Source: an uncultured Spirochaetales bacterium
Lineage (GTDB): Bacteria; Myxococcota_A; UBA9160; PR03
Assembly (NCBI GenBank): GCA_964615045.1
Contig: CAZTOE010000005.1
Coordinates: 1 to 41,837, forward strand
DNA: 41,837 nucleotides
Reading direction: 5' to 3'
In this document: positions 2,064-32,172 of the stretch, piece after piece
Numbering within the stretch: position 1 is the first letter of the stretch
Layout: every line of letters starts with the position of its first letter
Notes under the pieces: model-generated
Databases searched by the model: none
Told to the model about the DNA's origin: nothing
Seen by the model: only the letters and a program-made list of their open reading frames with translations
Position numbers and translations under genes: made by a program

Positions 2064-3371
2064 ATGGAATCCCAGCGCGAAGCACAGGTTCACGATCTCG
2101 ATCGCGTCCGCCGCAGCCGGGTGCGCCCCGTGATGGGGGTCCGGCGGGCCGAGACCCCGGCGCAGGCGGCTCCCGGCACCGCGCGGTCACCCCGCGTCTG
2201 GGCCGTAGGGGGCGGCAAGGGAGGCATCGGAAAAACCGTTGTCGCATCGAGCCTGGCGCTCGCCTTCGCGCGCCGGGGTCGTCGCTGCGCGCTGGTCGAC
2301 GCCGATCTGGGGGCGGCGAACCTCCATACCGTGTTCGGCGTCGAGAGACCCCGCTACACGCTCTCGCACTTTCTGAGTCGCGAGGTCGCCGAGCTCCGCC
2401 AGATCGCCTGGCCTACCGGGTTCTCGAATCTCTGGTTGCTCAGCGGGGCGCGTGCGCTTCCCGGCATGGCGAACCCGAATCACGCGCAAAAGCAGAAGCT
2501 CATTCGTCAGCTTCGCCGTCTTCCGGTCGACGACGTGGTGCTCGATTTGAGCGCCGGGAGCGCCTTTACCGCGCTCGACTTCTTCCTGGCCGCCGACCGC
2601 GGAATCCTCGTTGTGGTTCCGGAACCCACTGCGATCGAAAACGCCTACCACTTCCTTCAAGTGGCGTGCTTTCGCGCGCTGCGCAACGCGGCCGCCGAAC
2701 CGCGGGTGCGCAAAGCCATCGATCAGGTCCTCGCCACCCCGGCGCGCGCCGAAGATCGTCTTCCCGCCGCGCTGATCGAGGAGGTCCGCCGGATCGATCT
2801 CGAGGCGGGCGAGCAGCTCCGCCGCGAGTTGTTTCATTTCCGCCCCACCCTGGTGCTCAACAAGACGCGCCGCGGGAGCTCCCTCGCCTGGGAGATGAAA
2901 CGCAGTTGTAGGCGCTACCTGGGTGTCGACCTCGAGATCCTCGGGGAGATGCCCTGGGACGACGGTGTGCGAGTGGCGATCGAGCGCAAGCAACCGGTGC
3001 TCGAACTCTTCCCGCAAAACCCCTTCTCCGTCGAGTTCTCGCGCATGGTCGAGAAGCATCTGCATCAACCGGCGCCTCCGGAGAACACCGGTTCGCCGTT
3101 CATTCTCGCGCCGGGCCCGTTTCTGGCGTGGTGGCGCAAACACCGGGGCAAGAGTCGGGCCGAAGTCGCCTTCGACCTGGGCATCCGCGAAGGCATGCTG
3201 GCGGCGATCGAAGAAGAAAATTTCGGCGCGCTCCCCGACGAGATCTACCTCCGGGCCTGGCTTTCGCAGTACGCTCGGCTCCTCGAGCTCTGCGATGCGG
3301 AGGCCGTGGTGACGCGATACCTGGCGCGCTTGAAATCCCGGGGTTCGGACGTGCCGCCCAGTCCCGCCTAG
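2064..3371 (+). CDS. MinD/FlhG (FleN)-like P-loop ATPase fused to C-terminal HTH (RodZ/HTH_25-like)
   Basis: Deviant Walker A GGKGGIGKT, LVDADLGAANLH, and PEPTAIENAY. C-terminal ...LAAIEEENFGALPDEIYLRAWLSQYARLL. Start at ATG 2064 is uncertain. Confidence 0.82.
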   Translation: MESQREAQVHDLDRVRRSRVRPVMGVRRAETPAQAAPGTARSPRVWAVGGGKGGIGKTVVASSLALAFARRGRRCALVDADLGAANLHTVFGVERPRYTLSHFLSREVAELRQIAWPTGFSNLWLLSGARALPGMANPNHAQKQKLIRQLRRLPVDDVVLDLSAGSAFTALDFFLAADRGILVVVPEPTAIENAYHFLQVACFRALRNAAAEPRVRKAIDQVLATPARAEDRLPAALIEEVRRIDLEAGEQLRRELFHFRPTLVLNKTRRGSSLAWEMKRSCRRYLGVDLEILGEMPWDDGVRVAIERKQPVLELFPQNPFSVEFSRMVEKHLHQPAPPENTGSPFILAPGPFLAWWRKHRGKSRAEVAFDLGIREGMLAAIEEENFGALPDEIYLRAWLSQYARLLELCDAEAVVTRYLARLKSRGSDVPPSPA

Positions 3372-4228
3372 CGCTCCTTCGCCGCGCCGGCCCAGCTCCC
3401 GCGCCGCGCCAGGTCGACACCGGCCAGCACCGTGAGTGCGCCCAGCGCCTGGAGCGCACCGAGCGCTTCTCCGAAGAAGCGCCACGCCAACAGCGCCGCA
3501 ACGACCGGCTGCACGAGCAGCGCCACCGCGCCGAAGGATGCGGGCAGTTGAGCCAAGGCGTAGGCGATCAGTCCCTGGCCGGCGACCTGCGCGACGAGTG
3601 CGAGCGCGACAAGCGGTGCGAAGGCGGCGGCCGTCGCCGGGAGCCAGTCGCTCTCGGTGGCAACGGCCAGCGGCCCCAGGACGAGCGCCGCAGCGAACGT
3701 GGCAGCTGTCATGATGTAGGGCGTTGCCAGTCGTTGTCGGAGGCGGTTGACCGTCAACAGGTACGCCCCGTAGGCGATCGCCGTCGCCACTCCCAGCAGA
3801 TCGCCTCCGAGCCGGTCGCCGCCCGCCGCGGCGCTCGTGCGCAGGAGGGCAAAGGTGCCGGCCACCGCCAGGCCCAGACCGAGGTAGAAGCTGCGGCGAA
3901 AGCGCTCGCCCCACCCCAGGTAGGCGCCGAGGGCGACGAAAATCGGCGAGAGATTCGCGAGCAGCGTTGCGTGGGCCACACTGGTTCGCCAGATGGAGGC
4001 GTGCCACAGGGCCAGGTCTGCCGCAAAAAAGACGCCGGCCCAGGCGAGCCCTGGGCCGGCGTCTCCCGACGTCGGCCCACGGTGATCTCCCCGCCCCGCC
4101 GTCCGCCAGAGCAGCAGCGCCCAGCACGGAAGGGCCAGGGCCACGCGCCAGAAGGCAGTCGCGGTCGATCCGACCGGGCTCCAGCGAACCAGGATCGGCG
4201 CCCAGCCGATTGCCACCGCGCCCATCAA
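3368..4228 (-). CDS. DMT/EamA family transporter
   Basis: About 10 hydrophobic segments; TSVAHATLLANLSPIFV and LLVQPVVAALLAW motifs. True start may lie slightly upstream. Confidence 0.88.
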   Translation of the reverse strand: MMGAVAIGWAPILVRWSPVGSTATAFWRVALALPCWALLLWRTAGRGDHRGPTSGDAGPGLAWAGVFFAADLALWHASIWRTSVAHATLLANLSPIFVALGAYLGWGERFRRSFYLGLGLAVAGTFALLRTSAAAGGDRLGGDLLGVATAIAYGAYLLTVNRLRQRLATPYIMTAATFAAALVLGPLAVATESDWLPATAAAFAPLVALALVAQVAGQGLIAYALAQLPASFGAVALLVQPVVAALLAWRFFGEALGALQALGALTVLAGVDLARRGSWAGAAKER

Positions 4229-13373: not shown

Positions 13374-14198
13374 ATGAGCGCCGAACGAGCCATCGACACC
13401 GGAACCGATCACCTGCTCGCCAGCGTCCGGTCCGGCGTGGCGACGCTGGTGATGAACCGCCCCGAGCGCCGCAACGCCTTCTCGAGCGAAATGCAGACCG
13501 GTCTCTCGCGAGCCCTCCACGAAGCGGAGTCCGCTTCGGACGTGCGCTGCGTGGTCCTCACCGGGGCCGGCGGCGCCTTCTGCGCGGGGGGCGACGTCAA
13601 GGAGTTCGCCAAGGGCGCCGCTACCGGGGGCGGCAGTTTCGACGAACGAGTCCACCAGCAGCGCCTCAACCAACGCGCCACGTCCGGGGCGCTGCGCGCC
13701 ATGCCCAAGCCCACCATCGCGGCCCTTCCCGGCCCCGCCGCCGGCGCGGGGCTCTCGCTGGCGCTGGCCTGTGACCTGCGCGTCGCCGCCGAGAACGCGA
13801 TTCTCACCACAGCCTTCGCCAAGGTCGGCTTTAGCGGCGACTACGGCGGCGCCTGGTTCCTGACGCGCCTCGTCGGCGAGGCCCGGGCCAAGGAGCTCTA
13901 TCTGCTGTCCGAACGCATCGACACGGAGACCGCCGAGCGGCTCGGCATCGTCAACCGAGTGTTCCCCGCGGAGACCTTCGCGAAGGAGGTCGAAGCGCTG
14001 GCCCTGTCGATCGCGTCGGGCCCGAGCATTGCGTACCGCTACATGAAAGAGAACATCAACCGCGCGGGTGGCGAGGAGCTCTTCTCCTATATGGACCGCG
14101 AGGTCACCTATCACCTGCACTGCGGGACCACCGAGGATCACCTCGAGGCCTCGAAGGCCTTCGTCGAGAAACGCTCCCCCGTCTTCCGAGGACGTTGA
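13374..14198 (+). CDS. Enoyl-CoA hydratase/isomerase family protein
   Basis: NRPERRNA, FCAGGD and AAGAGLSLALACDLR motifs; typical end PVFRGR. AGGAG SD. Confidence 0.92.
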   Translation: MSAERAIDTGTDHLLASVRSGVATLVMNRPERRNAFSSEMQTGLSRALHEAESASDVRCVVLTGAGGAFCAGGDVKEFAKGAATGGGSFDERVHQQRLNQRATSGALRAMPKPTIAALPGPAAGAGLSLALACDLRVAAENAILTTAFAKVGFSGDYGGAWFLTRLVGEARAKELYLLSERIDTETAERLGIVNRVFPAETFAKEVEALALSIASGPSIAYRYMKENINRAGGEELFSYMDREVTYHLHCGTTEDHLEASKAFVEKRSPVFRGR

Positions 14199-14201
14199 AC
14201 C

Positions 14202-15149
14202 ATGCCCAGTACGCGCCCGCCCGTGGACTACATCGAGCGCACCCGCGAACAGTATGCAGCCCTCGGCTACCCCCCCTACCAATGGGTGCACAGCGAGACG
14301 CCGCCGCCGTGGGCGCCGCTGCGCAAGCCCCTCTCCGAAGCGCGTCTCGGCCTCGTCGCTTCGGGAGGGATCTATGTCGAGGGGCAGGTCGCGTTTCACT
14401 ACAAGGACGACACGTCGTTCCGCATCGTCGACACGGCGACCCCCACCGATCGACTTCGCGCCACGCACTTCGCCTACGACCTCGCCGACGCGCGCAGTGA
14501 TCCGAATGTGGTATTTCCCCTCGATCCGCTCCGCGAGCTGGTGAAGGACGGAGTCCTCGGCGAGCTGTCGCCCCGCGCCTACACGTTCATGGGGGGCATT
14601 TATTCGTCGCGCAAAGTCCGCGAACTGCTCGCCCCCGAGATCGCGCGGCGCCTGGTCGAGGATCAGGTCGACCTCGTCCTGCTCGTTCCGGTCTGACCGG
14701 TGTGTCATCAGTCCGTGGGACTGATCGCACGCGAGATCGAGGGTCGGGGAATTCCCACCCTCTCGATGAGCAGCGCCTGGTCGATCACCGCGGCAGTCAA
14801 TCCGCCGCGCGCGCTCTATCTCGACTTTCCCCTCGGTCATACCACCGGCAAGCCCGCCGACCGTGCCTTGCAGCGCGCCATCGTGTCGGACGCCTTGCGC
14901 GGCTTCGAGCGTTTTCGAGAGCCCGGGAGCATCGAGAGGCTGCCCTATGAGTGGGCGGCGGACGACGCCTGGAAGGACCGCGTGATGCGCCCGCGTGCCG
15001 GCGAAGCAGCGGACGACGCGGATGCCTACGAAGACGACCGCGTGGAGCGGTTCGACACGCCACAGTATCAGTGCGAGCGCGATCGCGAGCTCGCCGAGGC
15101 GGCGCTCGCCGAGGGCCGCTGCGAAACCTGCGTCTGGGTCGAACCGTAG
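14202..15149 (+). CDS. Selenoprotein: glycine/sarcosine/betaine/D-proline reductase selenoprotein B family (PrdB/GrdB-like), 315 aa, Sec165 at TGA 14694-14696
   Basis: ORFs 14202-14696 and 14700-15149 are in frame. Read through, they give VDLVLLVPV-U-PVCHQSVGLIAREIE, the UxxC site of this family. N-half has KPLSEARLGLVASGG and DPNVVFPLD. SECIS-like hairpin follows. Confidence 0.88.
14700..14730 (+). promoter_or_regulatory. Putative bacterial SECIS element
   Basis: GTGTG-TC-ATCAGTCC-GTG-GGACTGAT-CGCAC: perfect 8-bp upper stem plus lower stem. The loop G lies 18 nt after the UGA. Confidence 0.8.
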
Positions 15150-20675: not shown

Positions 20676-21293
20676 TCAGGGCGTCCGCTGCAGCGGCTCG
20701 CCGCTCTCGGCGGCTTGCTGGATGCCCGCATCGAGCTCCAAGCCCAACCCATCCGCCAGCCGCGTCAGATAGTTGAAGATCCCCACGATATGGGCGACCT
20801 CGAGGCAGGCGCGATCGTCGAAGCCCATCTCGCGCAGCGGCTGCCAATCGCCCTCCACCATCCGCGTCGGTTGGGCGGAGAGCTTCTCGGCGACCTCCAG
20901 GAGCGCGCGCTCCCGCTCGCCGAGCCCGGCCACCTCGCGCCAGCGGCGCTCCGCGATCGCCCGCGAGAGTCCTCGCGATCCGCCCTCGACACGCAGAAAC
21001 TCTGCGTGGGACTGCGTTCAGTAGAAGCAATCTTGCGCGGCGGCTGCGACCCCGGCGACCATCTCCCGCTCGCGCCGGCTGAGCGTTCGCTCGGGCGCGA
21101 ACATGATCGCGTTGTAGAGCTGCATGAAGGGCGGGCCGATCTCGGGGTGACTGATGATCAAGCGCCCCATGGCCGGCACGAACCCGAAGGAGTACGGCGA
21201 TCCCGCCATGGCCGGACGGAGCTGCGCCTCGCTCGGAAGCCGAACCCACGCTCCCGGCTCGCCCTTCGCGACGCGGTTGCTGTGTACGCTCAT
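20676..21293 (-). CDS. Selenoprotein: AhpD/carboxymuconolactone-decarboxylase-like peroxidase-related protein, 205 aa, Sec92 at TGA 21020-21018
   Basis: The upstream half ends LSRREREMVAGVAAAAQDCFY-TGA and the frame continues TQSHAEFLR...NYLTRLADGLG. This gives the exact AhpD motif E-x11-C-x2-(U)-x3-H. SECIS-like hairpin follows. Confidence 0.88.
20990..21008 (-). promoter_or_regulatory. Putative bacterial SECIS element
   Basis: Minus strand CACGCAGA-GTT-TCTGCGTG: perfect 8-bp stem. The loop G lies 17 nt after the UGA. Confidence 0.78.
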
Positions 21294-21410
21294 CGGATGC
21301 CTCCCCGCGAGCGGCAGGCTCGCGCGACAATCGGAGGCCTGCCAGGGTACACTTCCCGGCCGCCGGCGCTCGACTGCGCCGCACAGCCAGCCGACGTCAA
21401 GGGAGAACCG

Positions 21411-22634
21411 ATGAGTCAAGCCATGAGTCAAGGCATTCTGAGCGGGCTTCGGGTGATCGATATGGCCACCTATATCTTCGGGCCGGCCAGCACCACGGTG
21501 ATGTCCGATTTTGGGGCCGAAGTCGTCAAGATCGAGAGCCCCGGGATCGGGGATCCCTACCGCTACACGCACCTGATGCCGCCCTTCGAACCCAACGAGC
21601 TCGACTACATGTTCCAGCTCGACAATCGCAACAAGCGAGGAATCGTGCTCGACGTGCGGGTCGATGCCGCCCGCGAGGCGTTGCTCGAGCTCGTGCGCGG
21701 CACCGACGTCTTCGTCACCAACTTTCCACCCCGGGTGCTCGAGAAGCTCCGGATTCGCTACGAGGATCTGGCGCCCCAGAACGACCGCTTGATCTACGCC
21801 CAGGTGACCGGTTACGGCGAGAACGGTGATGAGATCGACAAGCCCGGTTTTGACGCGACGGCCTACTGGGCGCGCACCGGTCTCATGGACGGCGTGCGCC
21901 CCCCGGACGCCGAACCCGCGCTCTCCGCTCCCGGGATGGGGGACCATCCCAGCGCCATGGCGCTCTTCGGCGGCATCATGCTGGCGCTCTACAAACGCGA
22001 GAAGACGGGCAAGGGGTCCAAGGTTTCGAGTTCCCTGATGGCGAACGGCGCCTGGGCGAACGGCTGCGCGATCGCGTCGGTACTCGCCGGCTGCCCGCAG
22101 ATCCGCGGCGTCCGGCGAGAAGCTCCGCCCAACGCGCTGATCAACCAATATCGGACCCGCGACGACCGTTTCTTCCTGCTCGTCGTCATCACGCCCGACA
22201 AGGACTGGGTGCGCTTCGCGCGAGCCATCGGTCGCCCCGAGCTACCCGAGGATCCACGCTTCGCGACCAAGGAGGCGCGCAGCGAGAACGCCCGCGCGTT
22301 GTTCGAGATCCTCGACGACGTTTTCAGCTCCCGGGACTTTGCGGACTGGAAGAAGATCCTGGACGACGCCCAGATTACCTTTGGCGTCGTCGAACGCACC
22401 GACGAGACGCCCCACGACAACCAGATGCGCGAGAACGATCTGTTCGTCGAGGTGTCGCACGAGGAGATGAGCAAGGTCCAGGTCGTGAACAGCCCGATCT
22501 GGCTCGGCGGGGAGTCCAAACGGCCCAGCACCCGTGCCCCCAAGCTGGGCGAACACACCGAAGAGGTGCTGGCCGAGATCGGCTACGACGCGGACCGCAT
22601 CCGGGCGCTGCGCGAAGCGGGCGGCCTGGGATAA
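21411..22634 (+). CDS. CaiB/BaiF family (class III) CoA-transferase
   Basis: LSGLRVID, GAEVVKIE, NRNKRGI and APKLGEHT motifs. GGAG SD before ATG 21411. Confidence 0.93.
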   Translation: MSQAMSQGILSGLRVIDMATYIFGPASTTVMSDFGAEVVKIESPGIGDPYRYTHLMPPFEPNELDYMFQLDNRNKRGIVLDVRVDAAREALLELVRGTDVFVTNFPPRVLEKLRIRYEDLAPQNDRLIYAQVTGYGENGDEIDKPGFDATAYWARTGLMDGVRPPDAEPALSAPGMGDHPSAMALFGGIMLALYKREKTGKGSKVSSSLMANGAWANGCAIASVLAGCPQIRGVRREAPPNALINQYRTRDDRFFLLVVITPDKDWVRFARAIGRPELPEDPRFATKEARSENARALFEILDDVFSSRDFADWKKILDDAQITFGVVERTDETPHDNQMRENDLFVEVSHEEMSKVQVVNSPIWLGGESKRPSTRAPKLGEHTEEVLAEIGYDADRIRALREAGGLG

Positions 22635-28671: not shown

Positions 28672-30201
28672 TCAGCGTCGCCAACGCAAGAGTGTTGCCA
28701 ACACGCGCTTGAGCGTCGGCGTCAATCGGGTCCGCAGGTAGGCGTTCGAGGCGGCCTTGATCGCTTCCGCCTGGGTCGGGTAGGGGAAGATCGCGCTGGC
28801 GATCGTTCCGAGCCCCACCTTGCCGGCCATGGCGATGCTGAGTGCGCCGATCAGGTCGCCGGCGTGGGCCGCGACTATTGTCGCGCCCAGGATCTCGTCG
28901 CGGCCCTTGCGGGTCACGATCTTGACGAAGCCCTCTTCCTGGCCGTCGCAGAGCGCGCGGTCGTTGGCCTCGAGATTGATCCGGTAGCTGTCGACGGCGA
29001 GCCCGCGTTCCGAAGCATCGCGCTCGTACAGACCGATATGCCCGAGCTCCGGGTCGGTGTACGTACACCAGGGCATGACGAGTCGGCTCAAGCGCTTGCG
29101 GCCGAAGAAGAACGCGTTTTGCACCGCAATCTTGGCGGCGGCGTCCGCCGCATGGGTGAACTTCCAGCCCATGGCACAATCGCCCACGGCGAAGATGCGG
29201 CGGTTGCGGGTCCGCAGAAAATCGTCCACCGTTACGCCACGGCGCTGGTCGAAGGCCACGCCAGCCGCTTCGAGGCCCAGCCCGTCGACGTTGGGGGCGC
29301 GCCCGGCCGCAACCAGGATCCCGTCCACCAGCAGCGGTTCACAGGCCCTTGTCGGGCCGCTCAGGAAGATGCGCTTGCCCTCGGCTCCGGCCTCCACCCT
29401 CTCGATGCGGATCTCCGTCTGGACGGCCACGCCGTCGCGCGTCAAGGCTCTGCGCACAAGCTCGGCGGCCTCGGGGTCTTCGCGGGGCAGGACTTGTTCG
29501 CTGGCCTCGAGGAGCGAGACTTGGCACCCGAGGCGCTGGAACGCCTGGGCGAGCTCGCAGCCGATCGGGCCGCCGCCGATCACGGCGAGGCGCGCGGGCG
29601 GCGAGGTCAACGAGAAGACCGTCTCGTTGGTCAGATAGCCGCTCTCGGCCAGCCCGGGGATCGGCGGTGCTGTGGCCCGTGCGCCCGTCGCGATCACCGC
29701 TCTGCGAAACCGCAGCTCGCTCTCCCCGACCACGACGCGGTCGGGGCCGGCGAAGCGCGCCTCGCCGAGAAACACATCGACACCGAGTTGGTGCTGGTAG
29801 CGATCGGCCGAGTCGTGGGGGCCGATGCGTGCGCGCACCTCGCGCATGCGTTGCATGGCAGCGCCGAAATCGGGCGTTTGTTCCGCGGGGAGCTTCAGGC
29901 CGAGCGAGGCGGCTGCCCGTGCCTCGGCGACTCGCCGCCCCGACGCGATCACCGCCTTTGAGGGGACGCAGCCGACATTGAGACAGTCTCCACCCAGGAA
30001 GTGGCGCTCGATCAACGCGACCCGGGCGCCGAGACCGGCCGCCACGCTGGCGGTCACCAGTCCTGCGGTCCCGGCCCCGAGGACCACCAGGTTGTAGCGG
30101 GAAGCGGGCTCTGGATGGCGCCAATCCGGGGGATGGACGTTGGCGAGGAGGCGCTGGTTGGCCTCGTCCCAGGGTTCGAGGCGGAGCGGGTTGGGCTTCA
30201 C
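28672..30201 (-). CDS. Pyridine nucleotide-disulfide oxidoreductase (mercuric-reductase-like/LPD family)
   Basis: GAGTAG FAD motif, GGDCLNVGCVPSK redox disulfide, GGGPIG and YPTQAE. No HMA domain and no C-terminal Cys-Cys. Confidence 0.9.
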   Translation of the reverse strand: MKPNPLRLEPWDEANQRLLANVHPPDWRHPEPASRYNLVVLGAGTAGLVTASVAAGLGARVALIERHFLGGDCLNVGCVPSKAVIASGRRVAEARAAASLGLKLPAEQTPDFGAAMQRMREVRARIGPHDSADRYQHQLGVDVFLGEARFAGPDRVVVGESELRFRRAVIATGARATAPPIPGLAESGYLTNETVFSLTSPPARLAVIGGGPIGCELAQAFQRLGCQVSLLEASEQVLPREDPEAAELVRRALTRDGVAVQTEIRIERVEAGAEGKRIFLSGPTRACEPLLVDGILVAAGRAPNVDGLGLEAAGVAFDQRRGVTVDDFLRTRNRRIFAVGDCAMGWKFTHAADAAAKIAVQNAFFFGRKRLSRLVMPWCTYTDPELGHIGLYERDASERGLAVDSYRINLEANDRALCDGQEEGFVKIVTRKGRDEILGATIVAAHAGDLIGALSIAMAGKVGLGTIASAIFPYPTQAEAIKAASNAYLRTRLTPTLKRVLATLLRWRR

Positions 30202-31022
30202 GAGCTTTCCTCGGGCGCAGAAGTCAGGGGCCGGGGCGCGGCGTCTTGCGTGGCTTCGCGCAAGGCGCTGCGGGCGATCCGCGTCACCCAGGTAGTGACG
30301 CCCACGGTGGCCAGGAGTCCGAGTCCCAGCACCGCGTAGTAGCCGGTGTCACGAGGCGTCTCGGCGCCGCCCGCGAGCGCGGCGACTTCGCCGGCGAGCC
30401 TGCCGTAGTAGACGTAGAGCAGCGTCCCCGGGAGCATCCCAGGTGAGGCGAGCAGGTAGTCGCGCAGCGAAATGCGCGTGAGGCCGAGCGCGTAGTTCAG
30501 AAATGTGAACGGGAAGGCTGGCGAGAGCCGCAGCAGGAACACGATGCGAGCGCCCCGCGCCGCGATGGCGCGGTCGAACGCCGCGAAACGCGCATTGCCC
30601 GCGACGCGCCGCTGCACGGCCGGACGCGCCAGGTAGCGAGCGATCACGAAGGCCAACGCCGATCCCAGCGTGGCAGCCGCGAAAACCGTGACGGTCCCGA
30701 TCCCCAAACCGAAAACGGCCCCCGCCACCAGGGTGAGCGCCGAACCCGGCACAAAAGCGGCCACGGCCACGACGTAGCCGGCGGCAAAAACCACCGGTCC
30801 CCACGCGCCGAGTTCCTGAACCCAGGTCGCGGACGCGAGCACGGCATCGCCGATCTGACGCCCGCCGGCGACGAGGACAGCGAGCCCGGCGATCAGCAGA
30901 GCACCCCGGAGCCACGAGAACCGCGAGGCCCGTTGCGGCTCGGACTCCAAGCCATCGGTGGGCGCGTCGGTACCCGCATGGGTGCCCTCGCTGGGCCTCG
31001 CGTCGGTATTCGAAACCGCCAT
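30198..31022 (-). CDS. TVP38/TMEM64 (DedA/SNARE-associated) family membrane protein
   Basis: PGSALTLVAGAVFG, LLRLSPAFPF and NYALGLT motifs. Confidence 0.9.
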   Translation of the reverse strand: MAVSNTDARPSEGTHAGTDAPTDGLESEPQRASRFSWLRGALLIAGLAVLVAGGRQIGDAVLASATWVQELGAWGPVVFAAGYVVAVAAFVPGSALTLVAGAVFGLGIGTVTVFAAATLGSALAFVIARYLARPAVQRRVAGNARFAAFDRAIAARGARIVFLLRLSPAFPFTFLNYALGLTRISLRDYLLASPGMLPGTLLYVYYGRLAGEVAALAGGAETPRDTGYYAVLGLGLLATVGVTTWVTRIARSALREATQDAAPRPLTSAPEESS

Positions 31023-31100: not shown

Positions 31101-32099
31101 TCACGAAGTCAGCGCACCGCCGCAGCTCGATCCCGAACCCGCCGTGCAGCCGAAGCAGTGGCGCGCCGTGACAATCGCCGCGCCGGTCAGCGCTGCGCAG
31201 CTCCCGAGCTCGAAGAGGTTCGAGGGGCCGTTCAGGGGAATCTGGAGCATCTGGTTGAAGTCGCAATCGTAGAGTCGCCCGTCCCAACCGACCGACACCG
31301 TGTGGCGACACATCAGCGCGGAGACCGTGGCGGGGTTGAAGTGTGCGACCAGCAGGGAGAGATACTCGGCCTCGCGACCCTCCCGGGCCAGAAAATCCGC
31401 AAAGCGTTTGATGGGCATGTTGGCGAGCGTGAGCAACTGGTTGAACTCGACGCCGAACGACTCGCGCAGCTCGCGGTGATAGCGGGCCTCGAGCTCCGCC
31501 TGGGAGGGCGGGAGCGAGGCACCGAGAGGATTGTAGACCAGGTCCAGCACGAGCCGTGGATCCCGGCCGTAGCCCAGCCGGTTGAGGGTGTGCAGGGCGT
31601 CCATGCTCTTCTGGAACACGCCGCGCCCCCGCTGCCGGTCGACGTTCTCGCGCGTGTAACAGGGCAGCGAGGCGACGATCGAGACCCGTTGTTGCGCCAG
31701 AAACTCGGCGGTGTCTTCTTGTCCCTCCTCGAAGAGCACCGTCAGGTTGCAGCGGTCGATCACCTCTTTGCCGAGGGCGCGCGCTCCGCGCACGAGCGCG
31801 CGGAAGTTCGGATTGAGCTCCGGCGCGCCGCCCGTCAGATCGACGCGCGCCACGGAAGGGCTGCGCTCGAGTAGCTCGAGCACGCGACGCGCGGTTGCCG
31901 CGTCCATCATCTCGTTTCGCTTCGGCCCCGCCTCGACGTGACAGTGGTGACACGCCTGATTGCAGCGCTTGCCCACGTTCACCTGGAGGGTGGTCGCTTC
32001 GGCGCGGCGCAGGACCGCCCAACCGTGCTGCCGCAGCGTCGCGGCGAAGCTGGGCGTCGGATCGTTCGCCACGGCAGTGGTGATGGGCTCGGCGGACAT
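31101..32099 (-). CDS. arsS: Radical SAM protein, ArsS/DUF3641 (rSAM selenodomain-associated) family, Cys form
   Basis: LQVNVGKRCNQACHHCHV (CxxxCxxC), DLTGGAPE, LYDCDFNQML and C-terminal HCFGCTAGSGSSCGGAL. Confidence 0.88.
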   Translation of the reverse strand: MSAEPITTAVANDPTPSFAATLRQHGWAVLRRAEATTLQVNVGKRCNQACHHCHVEAGPKRNEMMDAATARRVLELLERSPSVARVDLTGGAPELNPNFRALVRGARALGKEVIDRCNLTVLFEEGQEDTAEFLAQQRVSIVASLPCYTRENVDRQRGRGVFQKSMDALHTLNRLGYGRDPRLVLDLVYNPLGASLPPSQAELEARYHRELRESFGVEFNQLLTLANMPIKRFADFLAREGREAEYLSLLVAHFNPATVSALMCRHTVSVGWDGRLYDCDFNQMLQIPLNGPSNLFELGSCAALTGAAIVTARHCFGCTAGSGSSCGGALTS

Positions 32100-32172
32100 G
32101 GCTTCTCCCGGCGGCCAGCTCCCCGACCCACCTTAGGCCGGAATCCGGGTCGCGGCGAGGCGTTGAACGCGG

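Follow-up and report, generated by a model that had tools for sequence, protein, structure and literature searches.

A GrdB/PrdB-superfamily gene predicted to encode selenocysteine at an in-frame UGA in an uncultured bacterium

The locus and the evidence for selenocysteine at residue 165

The stretch of DNA analysed here, called the window in what follows, comprises 41,837 nucleotides (contig CAZTOE010000005.1, positions 1 to 41,837, of assembly GCA_964615045.1) from an uncultured Spirochaetales bacterium that GTDB places in Myxococcota_A, UBA9160, PR03. Between positions 14202 and 15149 of its plus strand lie two open reading frames (ORFs) that share one frame and are separated by a TGA codon. 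A preliminary description made from the letters of the window had read them as a single gene for a 315-residue PrdB/GrdB-like reductase with selenocysteine (Sec) at the TGA, in a U-x-x-C motif and followed by a hairpin. The features of the locus are the following.

13374..14198, plus strand: crotonase (enoyl-CoA hydratase/isomerase) gene; PF00378, E 1e-55
14188..14192, plus strand: Shine-Dalgarno-like GAGGA, 9 nt ahead of the ATG at 14202; read off the sequence
14202..15149, plus strand: predicted 315-aa coding sequence, PrdB/GrdB-like selenoprotein, from its ATG to the TAG at 15147-15149
14694..14696, plus strand: predicted Sec-UGA codon, residue 165; from the frame read with TGA as U and from the alignment of homologues
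14700..14732, plus strand: bacterial Sec insertion sequence (SECIS) hairpin, predicted inside the coding sequence; from folding and covariation
14707-14714/14718-14725, plus strand: upper stem of the hairpin, 8 bp
14715-14717, plus strand: apical loop GUG; from folding
14700-14705/14727-14732, plus strand: lower stem, weaker; from folding
14703-14705, plus strand: TGT codon of the presumed resolving residue Cys168; from the translation

The first ORF (14202-14696, ATG start, 164 aa) closes at the TGA at 14694-14696 and the second (14700-15149) continues in its frame, the letters from 14685 to 14711 reading GTT CCG GTC TGA CCG GTG TGT CAT CAG. When TGA is read as U, the readthrough product has 315 residues and contains the segment ...DLVLLVPV-U165-PVC168HQSVG.... 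The G+C content at third codon positions (GC3) is 0.83 before the TGA and 0.81 after it, both values being of the coding type in a window of 68.7% GC. Inspection of the sequence ahead of the GTG at 14700 found no purine-rich stretch resembling a Shine-Dalgarno site, in agreement with the earlier remark that the downstream ORF has none of its own. The TGA itself is bridged by contigs of four public runs (X1, X2, X3 and X4; four studies, perhaps with the source sample among them), and no other letter occurs there; the sole difference in the compared stretch is a C>T change at 14786 in X4. Because contigs of four runs show the same TGA, a sequencing error is excluded as its origin.

The search with the protein gave 369 matches, of which 120 were listed and 28 of those aligned. 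The matches listed form two groups, full-length proteins with approximately 280-350 aa and 43-55% identity, and proteins of 173-250 aa at 61-75% identity, the latter with dozens of entries that cover approximately the first half of the query only. Among the 18 full-length homologues aligned, column 165 is occupied by Cys in 15 and by Thr in three, and is followed by PVCHQ or PICHQ. The ten short homologues aligned, which are the closest of those aligned (62-75% identity), all end at ...LLVPV, the very point at which a UGA would make a gene caller stop. This is the kind of mis-call by standard pipelines that had been anticipated for such genes.

Genome contigs contain 585 stretches encoding relatives. 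In the best 80 of these 585 loci, all from other species, the codon for residue 165 is TGA in every case, and the protein is conserved on both sides of it. Of 201 genomes sampled from the same phylum, 30 had matches, 65 altogether, and each of the 65 contains TGA in frame (one in 63 matches, two in one match and three in another); a Cys form was not found among them. The alignment of TGA with residue 165 was checked in 32 loci, 29 from the same phylum and three paralogues from the source genome, and it was present in all of them. The conservation of this in-frame codon where homologues have Cys supports the prediction that UGA encodes Sec here.

The hairpin, which had been placed at 14700-14730, extends in our folding from 14700 to 14732. 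The 40 nt from 14694 to 14733 fold at -20.6 kcal/mol (z -3.2), and none of 200 shuffled sequences was as stable. The criteria for bacterial SECIS (bSECIS) elements, as they stand in the available part of the source, are a loop of 3-9 nt whose first two positions contain G, an upper stem of 4-16 bp, a distance of 16-37 nt between UGA and loop and a minimum free energy of -7.5 kcal/mol or lower (PMC13188914). The hairpin lies within all of these limits, with a 3-nt loop that starts with G-U, an upper stem of 8 bp, a spacing of 18 nt and the folding energy given above.

The pairing of the upper stem is also preserved between species. In 80 distinct orthologues, 97.5% of the cells hold standard pairs, versus 2-46% when the pairing is slid along the alignment, and changes on both sides of a pair occur in 18 cells against a mean of 3.8 in shuffled alignments, a count that none of 500 shuffles equalled. 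These two-sided changes fall at synonymous positions, CAG/CAA (Gln) varying with CUG/UUG (Leu) and CAU/CAC (His) with AUC/GUC; at the latter pair, 13 orthologues have a C-A mismatch. The analysis was extended to a set of 33 sequences that includes paralogues (UPVCHQ, UPLDHQ, UPMCNQ, UPDCCR, UPFCCR and others). Here 92.4% of the upper stem is paired versus 12-47% when slid, compensatory changes affect five of the eight pairs in 34 cells, and on four of five measures none of 500 shuffles reached the observed value, so that the covariation signal is much stronger once the paralogue subfamilies are added. The lower stem is conserved in part only, and a search of the whole window at the Rfam gathering thresholds matched no family. 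Taken on folding and comparison of sequences, the predicted SECIS element is well supported.

The source genome (567 contigs, 91.7% complete) carries the machinery for Sec incorporation. Profile matches above the respective cut-offs were obtained for selA (501.7 bits), selB (318 bits) and selD (262.3 bits), and ARAGORN located a tRNA-Sec with anticodon tca at C213:6147-6245. Thus each of the refutation tests that had been proposed beforehand for this locus came out in line with a selenoprotein: the sel genes and the tRNA were found, the column in question holds Cys or UGA in the homologues, with Thr in three of 18, and the TGA is no read error.

As an observation apart, the frame that holds the selD match (L010, C1:32664-33581) is open over 755 aa, without an internal stop. 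This SelD may be fused to another domain and is not a Sec form but one with Cys or another residue.

Family membership, paralogues and genomic context

Pfam model PF07355 (GRDB) matches the readthrough protein at E 3.7e-13, its 49.9 bits exceeding the cut-off of 22, over residues 39-162 (positions 218-345 of the 347 in the model), and the match ends three residues before residue 165. The top NCBIfam model is that of PrdB, TIGR04483, whose positions 15-236 of 238 are matched with 168.9 bits (E 1.2e-49); residues 1-32 and 254-315 of the protein lie outside this match. Its equivalog cut-off of 300 bits was missed both in the protein search (168.9 bits) and in the genome search (163.9 bits). The subfamily model TIGR01918 was barely passed, with 67 bits versus 65.45, and the equivalog cut-off of 602 for GrdB (TIGR01917) was missed with 66.8 bits; taken together, the GrdB, GrdF and GrdH models (TIGR01917, NF040794 and NF040795) gave 62-72 bits against cut-offs of 602-800. 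The UxxC motif with Sec in first place is present as U165-P-V-C168.

Judged by these profile matches, the protein belongs to the GrdB/PrdB superfamily, is nearest to PrdB and is the equivalog of no characterised enzyme, its scores lying under both equivalog cut-offs. The label PrdB/GrdB-like, under which the locus was originally described, is therefore appropriate at the level of the superfamily (PF07355, TIGR01918) and does not hold in the sense of an equivalog of PrdB (168.9 versus 300 bits) or of GrdB (66.8 versus 602 bits).

Profile searches combined with inspection for in-frame TGA identified three PrdB-like paralogues in the source genome.

C101:8032-8997, plus strand: PrdB-like paralogue with UPDCC
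C259, about 3000-3774, plus strand: PrdB-like paralogue with UPLD, without the resolving Cys
C13:26327-27220, minus strand: PrdB-like paralogue with UPVCHQT

Each of the three has a single TGA at the Sec column and a hairpin at the same position. Their genomic contexts are EthD with SUI1, NAPRTase, and a Zn-dependent alcohol dehydrogenase with an epoxide hydrolase and a fatty-acid desaturase, and no partner gene is common to the three. Relatives in the order to which the window belongs have one to five PrdB-like copies per genome, all of them with TGA.

The crotonase gene upstream of the selenoprotein gene stops at a TGA (14196-14198) that ends 3 nt ahead of the ATG at 14202, and because of this 3-nt gap the two genes are probably one operon. 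Downstream of the selenoprotein gene are genes for GreB and then RecQ. No Gly_reductase/PrdA domain was found in the ten flanking ORFs scanned, and prdA, prdC, prdD, prdE and grdA are not among the neighbours.

When crotonase genes were counted by tblastn around the 80 orthologous loci, one was found within approximately 6 kb of the orthologue in 27 of them. In 14 loci it is the immediate upstream neighbour, 13 times in divergent orientation and once co-directional as in the source genome. Among eight orthologue-type loci of the phylum, three have an adjacent crotonase gene, in other orientations. With many of these genomes related to one another, the recurrence is a lead and no more. Clustering of the neighbourhoods of the 80 loci brought out crotonase, DUF427, acyl-CoA dehydrogenase, ferritin, Nqr subunits, an MlrC-like peptidase and DUF2799; the greater part of these probably reflects synteny in one gammaproteobacterial lineage. 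As the ORF filter behind this clustering also chose antisense shadow ORFs in place of the split gene, the tblastn count of crotonase genes is the one relied on here.

The crotonase stop codon is itself in the frame of the selenoprotein gene, so that the region looks like a single frame with two TGAs. Readthrough of this first TGA was considered and rejected, given that the ECH_1 match already spans positions 19-273 of 274 and that an ATG follows 3 nt on.

Interpretation and comparison with known systems

We consider it very probable that 14202-15149 on the plus strand is a single gene encoding a 315-aa selenoprotein of the GrdB/PrdB superfamily, with UGA decoded as Sec by means of a SECIS element, and that the product is likely a stand-alone reductase. 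Following what is established for bacterial Sec decoding, SelB with Sec-tRNA(Sec) would bind the hairpin and insert Sec at the UGA. The AlphaFold model of the product is a single compact one (pLDDT, predicted local distance difference test, 90.7; pTM, predicted template modelling score, 0.91) in which the two halves fold as one domain and residue 165 is placed between a strand (158-162) and a helix (166-181). Sec165 would thus occupy the N-terminal end of the helix, directly past the strand. By analogy with PrdB, GrdB and other UxxC redox proteins, Sec165 and Cys168 may form a selenol/thiol redox pair. Sec165 would be the nucleophile attacking the substrate, Cys168 would resolve the adduct to a selenenylsulfide, and a dithiol system such as thioredoxin would reduce the latter. 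The protein would act without a pyruvoyl subunit.

Several observations weigh against this interpretation or parts of it. The redox mechanism is drawn from analogy. Thr occupies the Sec column in three of the 18 full-length homologues (P0002, P0010 and P0017), including the best full-length match (55% identity, V-T-PVCHQ), and the alignment thus indicates that a redox-active residue at this site is not universal; the Thr forms would be either non-redox variants or enzymes whose chemistry has no strict need of a chalcogen at the site. In the source genome, the UPLD paralogue on C259 lacks the resolving Cys. On the structural side, no solved relative turned up when the PDB was searched by sequence, either with the protein alone or with a profile, Foldseek gave no match in the PDB at E <= 0.001, and a wide comparison with VIA-align reached at best Z 8.3, to LacI/periplasmic-binding-like folds and to Rossmann folds of short-chain dehydrogenases/reductases (SDR), a generic likeness at the level of a common arrangement. 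Among the public runs listed that hold the gene, none is recorded as RNA. The link to crotonase may be in part inherited synteny, as the 27 loci with a crotonase gene nearby come mostly from Pseudomonadales-type metagenome-assembled genomes and the orientation varies. Finally, PrdA (TIGR04480), the PrdA/GrdE family (PF09338, Gly_reductase) and GrdA (PF04723) were not found in the 91.7%-complete source genome, nor was PF09338 found in five chromosome-level records carrying an orthologue, in searches that were run without a positive control and do not demonstrate absence.

Other explanations of the locus were weighed against the same evidence. Standard gene callers split the frame, and many database entries are N-terminal fragments, as they would be if the TGA were a real stop, produced by a nonsense mutation or an assembly error, with a pseudogene or a separate second gene as the result. 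However, TGA is kept at this very codon in 80 of 80 species and 32 of 32 further loci and is in frame in 65 of 65 matches of the phylum, the downstream half is conserved as protein with coding-type GC3 and no Shine-Dalgarno site, the hairpin covaries, the Sec machinery is present, the four runs agree on the letters and the halves fold as one domain in the model; a pseudogene or pair of genes is accordingly extremely improbable. The open frame alone would also be compatible with UGA reassigned to an ordinary amino acid, in the manner of code 4 or code 25 and without any Sec. Against this, TGA is the stop of 18 of the 30 ORFs listed with coding-type GC3, including the crotonase gene 3 nt upstream, and is otherwise an ordinary stop in this organism; moreover tRNA-Sec, selA, selB and selD are present, and the in-frame TGAs found are single, at Cys-equivalent catalytic positions, with a hairpin after each. 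We regard the chance of such a reassignment as negligible.

A further alternative accepts the selenoprotein and takes it for the PrdB of a true Stickland-type D-proline reductase, whose pyruvoyl-bearing PrdA subunit would be encoded at another place in the genome or in the part left unassembled. The PrdB model is the best of the NCBIfam models and matches over nearly its full length, the UxxC motif is present, and a genome of 567 contigs and 91.7% completeness, searched for PrdA without a positive control, leaves room for a partner. The score of 168.9 bits is, however, far under the cut-off of 300, the neighbours are crotonase and GreB instead of prdA, prdC, prdD or prdE, and neither TIGR04480 nor PF09338 had a match in the source genome, as was the case for PF09338 in the five chromosome-level records. 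In addition, the four paralogues of this genome are in four unrelated contexts, and O2-dependent enzymes are encoded close by (a luciferase-like monooxygenase near the gene and the fatty-acid desaturase beside one paralogue), which suggests a lifestyle that is not strictly anaerobic. On balance this subunit reading is quite unlikely. The protein is probably not a subunit of either D-proline or glycine reductase, because it scores under both equivalog cut-offs and neither PrdA/GrdE nor GrdA was found in the searches without a positive control, and a stand-alone Sec-dependent reductase is more likely.

Perhaps the PrdB-like selenoproteins without a detected PrdA are altogether a separate family of stand-alone Sec-dependent reductases and not proline reductase subunits. 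This broader suggestion, which we make tentatively and with rather less than even confidence, comes from the one to five Sec paralogues per genome in the order of the window, each of which keeps UGA and hairpin, and from the existence of a UxxD subfamily without the resolving Cys. As the orthologue recurs beside crotonase, the substrate could be an acyl-CoA-derived compound; any tie to acyl-CoA metabolism by way of the coupled crotonase gene, though possible, is speculative.

Selenoproteins named after PrdB have been encountered repeatedly in environmental sequence. In the available parts of the reports, a 'Proline reductase (PrdB)' family ranks third in abundance among the selenoprotein families of the Sargasso Sea, where it has 42 genes (Zhang, Fomenko and Gladyshev 2005, PMC1088965), and in the Global Ocean Sampling (GOS) data the 'PrdB' family, represented by 235 selenoproteins next to 110 Cys homologues, also belongs to the most abundant ones (Zhang and Gladyshev 2008, PMC2398784). 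'Proline reductase' selenoproteins are reported from Anaeromyxobacter and Geobacter (PMC1794560), PrdB (TIGR04483, UxxC) is counted among the most widespread bacterial selenoproteins (PMC9312934; PMC13188914), and the UxxC motif is given for both the PrdB and the GrdB families (PMC13188914). So far as those parts describe it, the marine family resembles the family of this gene in belonging to pfam07355, in a UxxC motif with Sec first, in having Cys homologues and in being abundant in non-clostridial environmental bacteria. The difference is that the marine family bears the name of PrdB, with no mention of a missing PrdA in those parts, whereas the gene described here falls under the PrdB cut-off and no PrdA was found with it. 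Compared in this way, by description, the gene is most probably a member of the marine 'PrdB' selenoprotein family.

For the D-proline reductase subunit PrdB itself (TIGR04483), of Clostridium sticklandii and C. difficile, PMC13188914 cites Kabisch et al. 1999. The protein studied here resembles clostridial PrdB in its homology over nearly the whole model (15-236 of 238) and in the Sec of its UxxC motif. It differs in its score (168.9 versus 300 bits), in being longer than the 238 positions of the model, in having no adjoining prdA, prdC, prdD or prdE, with PrdA/GrdE undetected in the genome by a search without a positive control, and in belonging to a family with several paralogues per genome in unrelated contexts. 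With GrdB, GrdF and GrdH it shares the superfamily, as seen from the PF07355 match and the TIGR01918 score; however, only the C-terminal part of these proteins of about 430 aa is matched, at 62-72 bits versus 602-800, and GrdA was not found in the source genome, again without a positive control.

A GrdB-like protein of Synergistota has been implicated in the reductive defluorination of fluoroacetate (PMC10838667, in the part available). Likened by description, it suggests that the superfamily may cut alpha-carbon bonds beyond the C-N bonds of glycine and proline, and another substrate therefore stays plausible for the gene studied here, although the organism and the context are different. In the portions of the literature available, nothing was found on the function of PrdB-like copies without PrdA, nor on this clade.

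The gene is a new, unannotated member of a selenoprotein family known since 2005, and to specialists in selenoproteins it will be an ordinary finding and no surprise. What gives it some weight is that the family, among the most abundant selenoproteins of the environment, is nevertheless named after a Stickland enzyme of clostridia, while a PrdA-type partner was found neither in the source genome nor in the five chromosome-level genomes, in searches without a positive control. With as many as five Sec paralogues in one genome, this lineage lends itself well to asking what these proteins do.

Annotation and other genes in the window

Three other genes of the window were examined in connection with in-frame TGA codons.

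About 20679-21257, minus strand, TGA at 21018-21020: AhpD-related selenoprotein gene, predicted from PF02627, TIGR01926 and the in-frame TGA
30198-31019, minus strand: gene for a VTT-domain membrane protein, in the same frame as the following; domain match
31101-32132, minus strand: ArsS-type radical SAM protein with DUF3641, Cys form (...GSSCGG...); TIGR04167, 440 bits

The AhpD-related ORF belongs to the AhpD/CMD family (PF02627, E 1.6e-10; TIGR01926, 123.7 bits versus a cut-off of 81.8) and has the motif ...QDCFY-U-TQSH..., that is, CxxU. It also matches in part NF041238, 'AhpD_rel_CFYUT alkylhydroperoxidase-related (seleno)protein'. A hairpin of 8 bp starts 12 nt past the UGA codon. The gene overlaps a plus-strand ORF (20715-22634) whose CoA-transferase domain begins at residue 242.

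Standard gene callers split or truncate the AhpD-related gene, as they do the PrdB-like gene and its three paralogues. The dozens of half-length database entries noted above indicate that this error of annotation is widespread.

The TGA at the junction 31100/31101 on the minus strand was likewise considered as a readthrough candidate and was rejected, the arrangement being that of a Cys-form ArsS gene with a true stop, followed by the separate gene for the VTT-domain protein.

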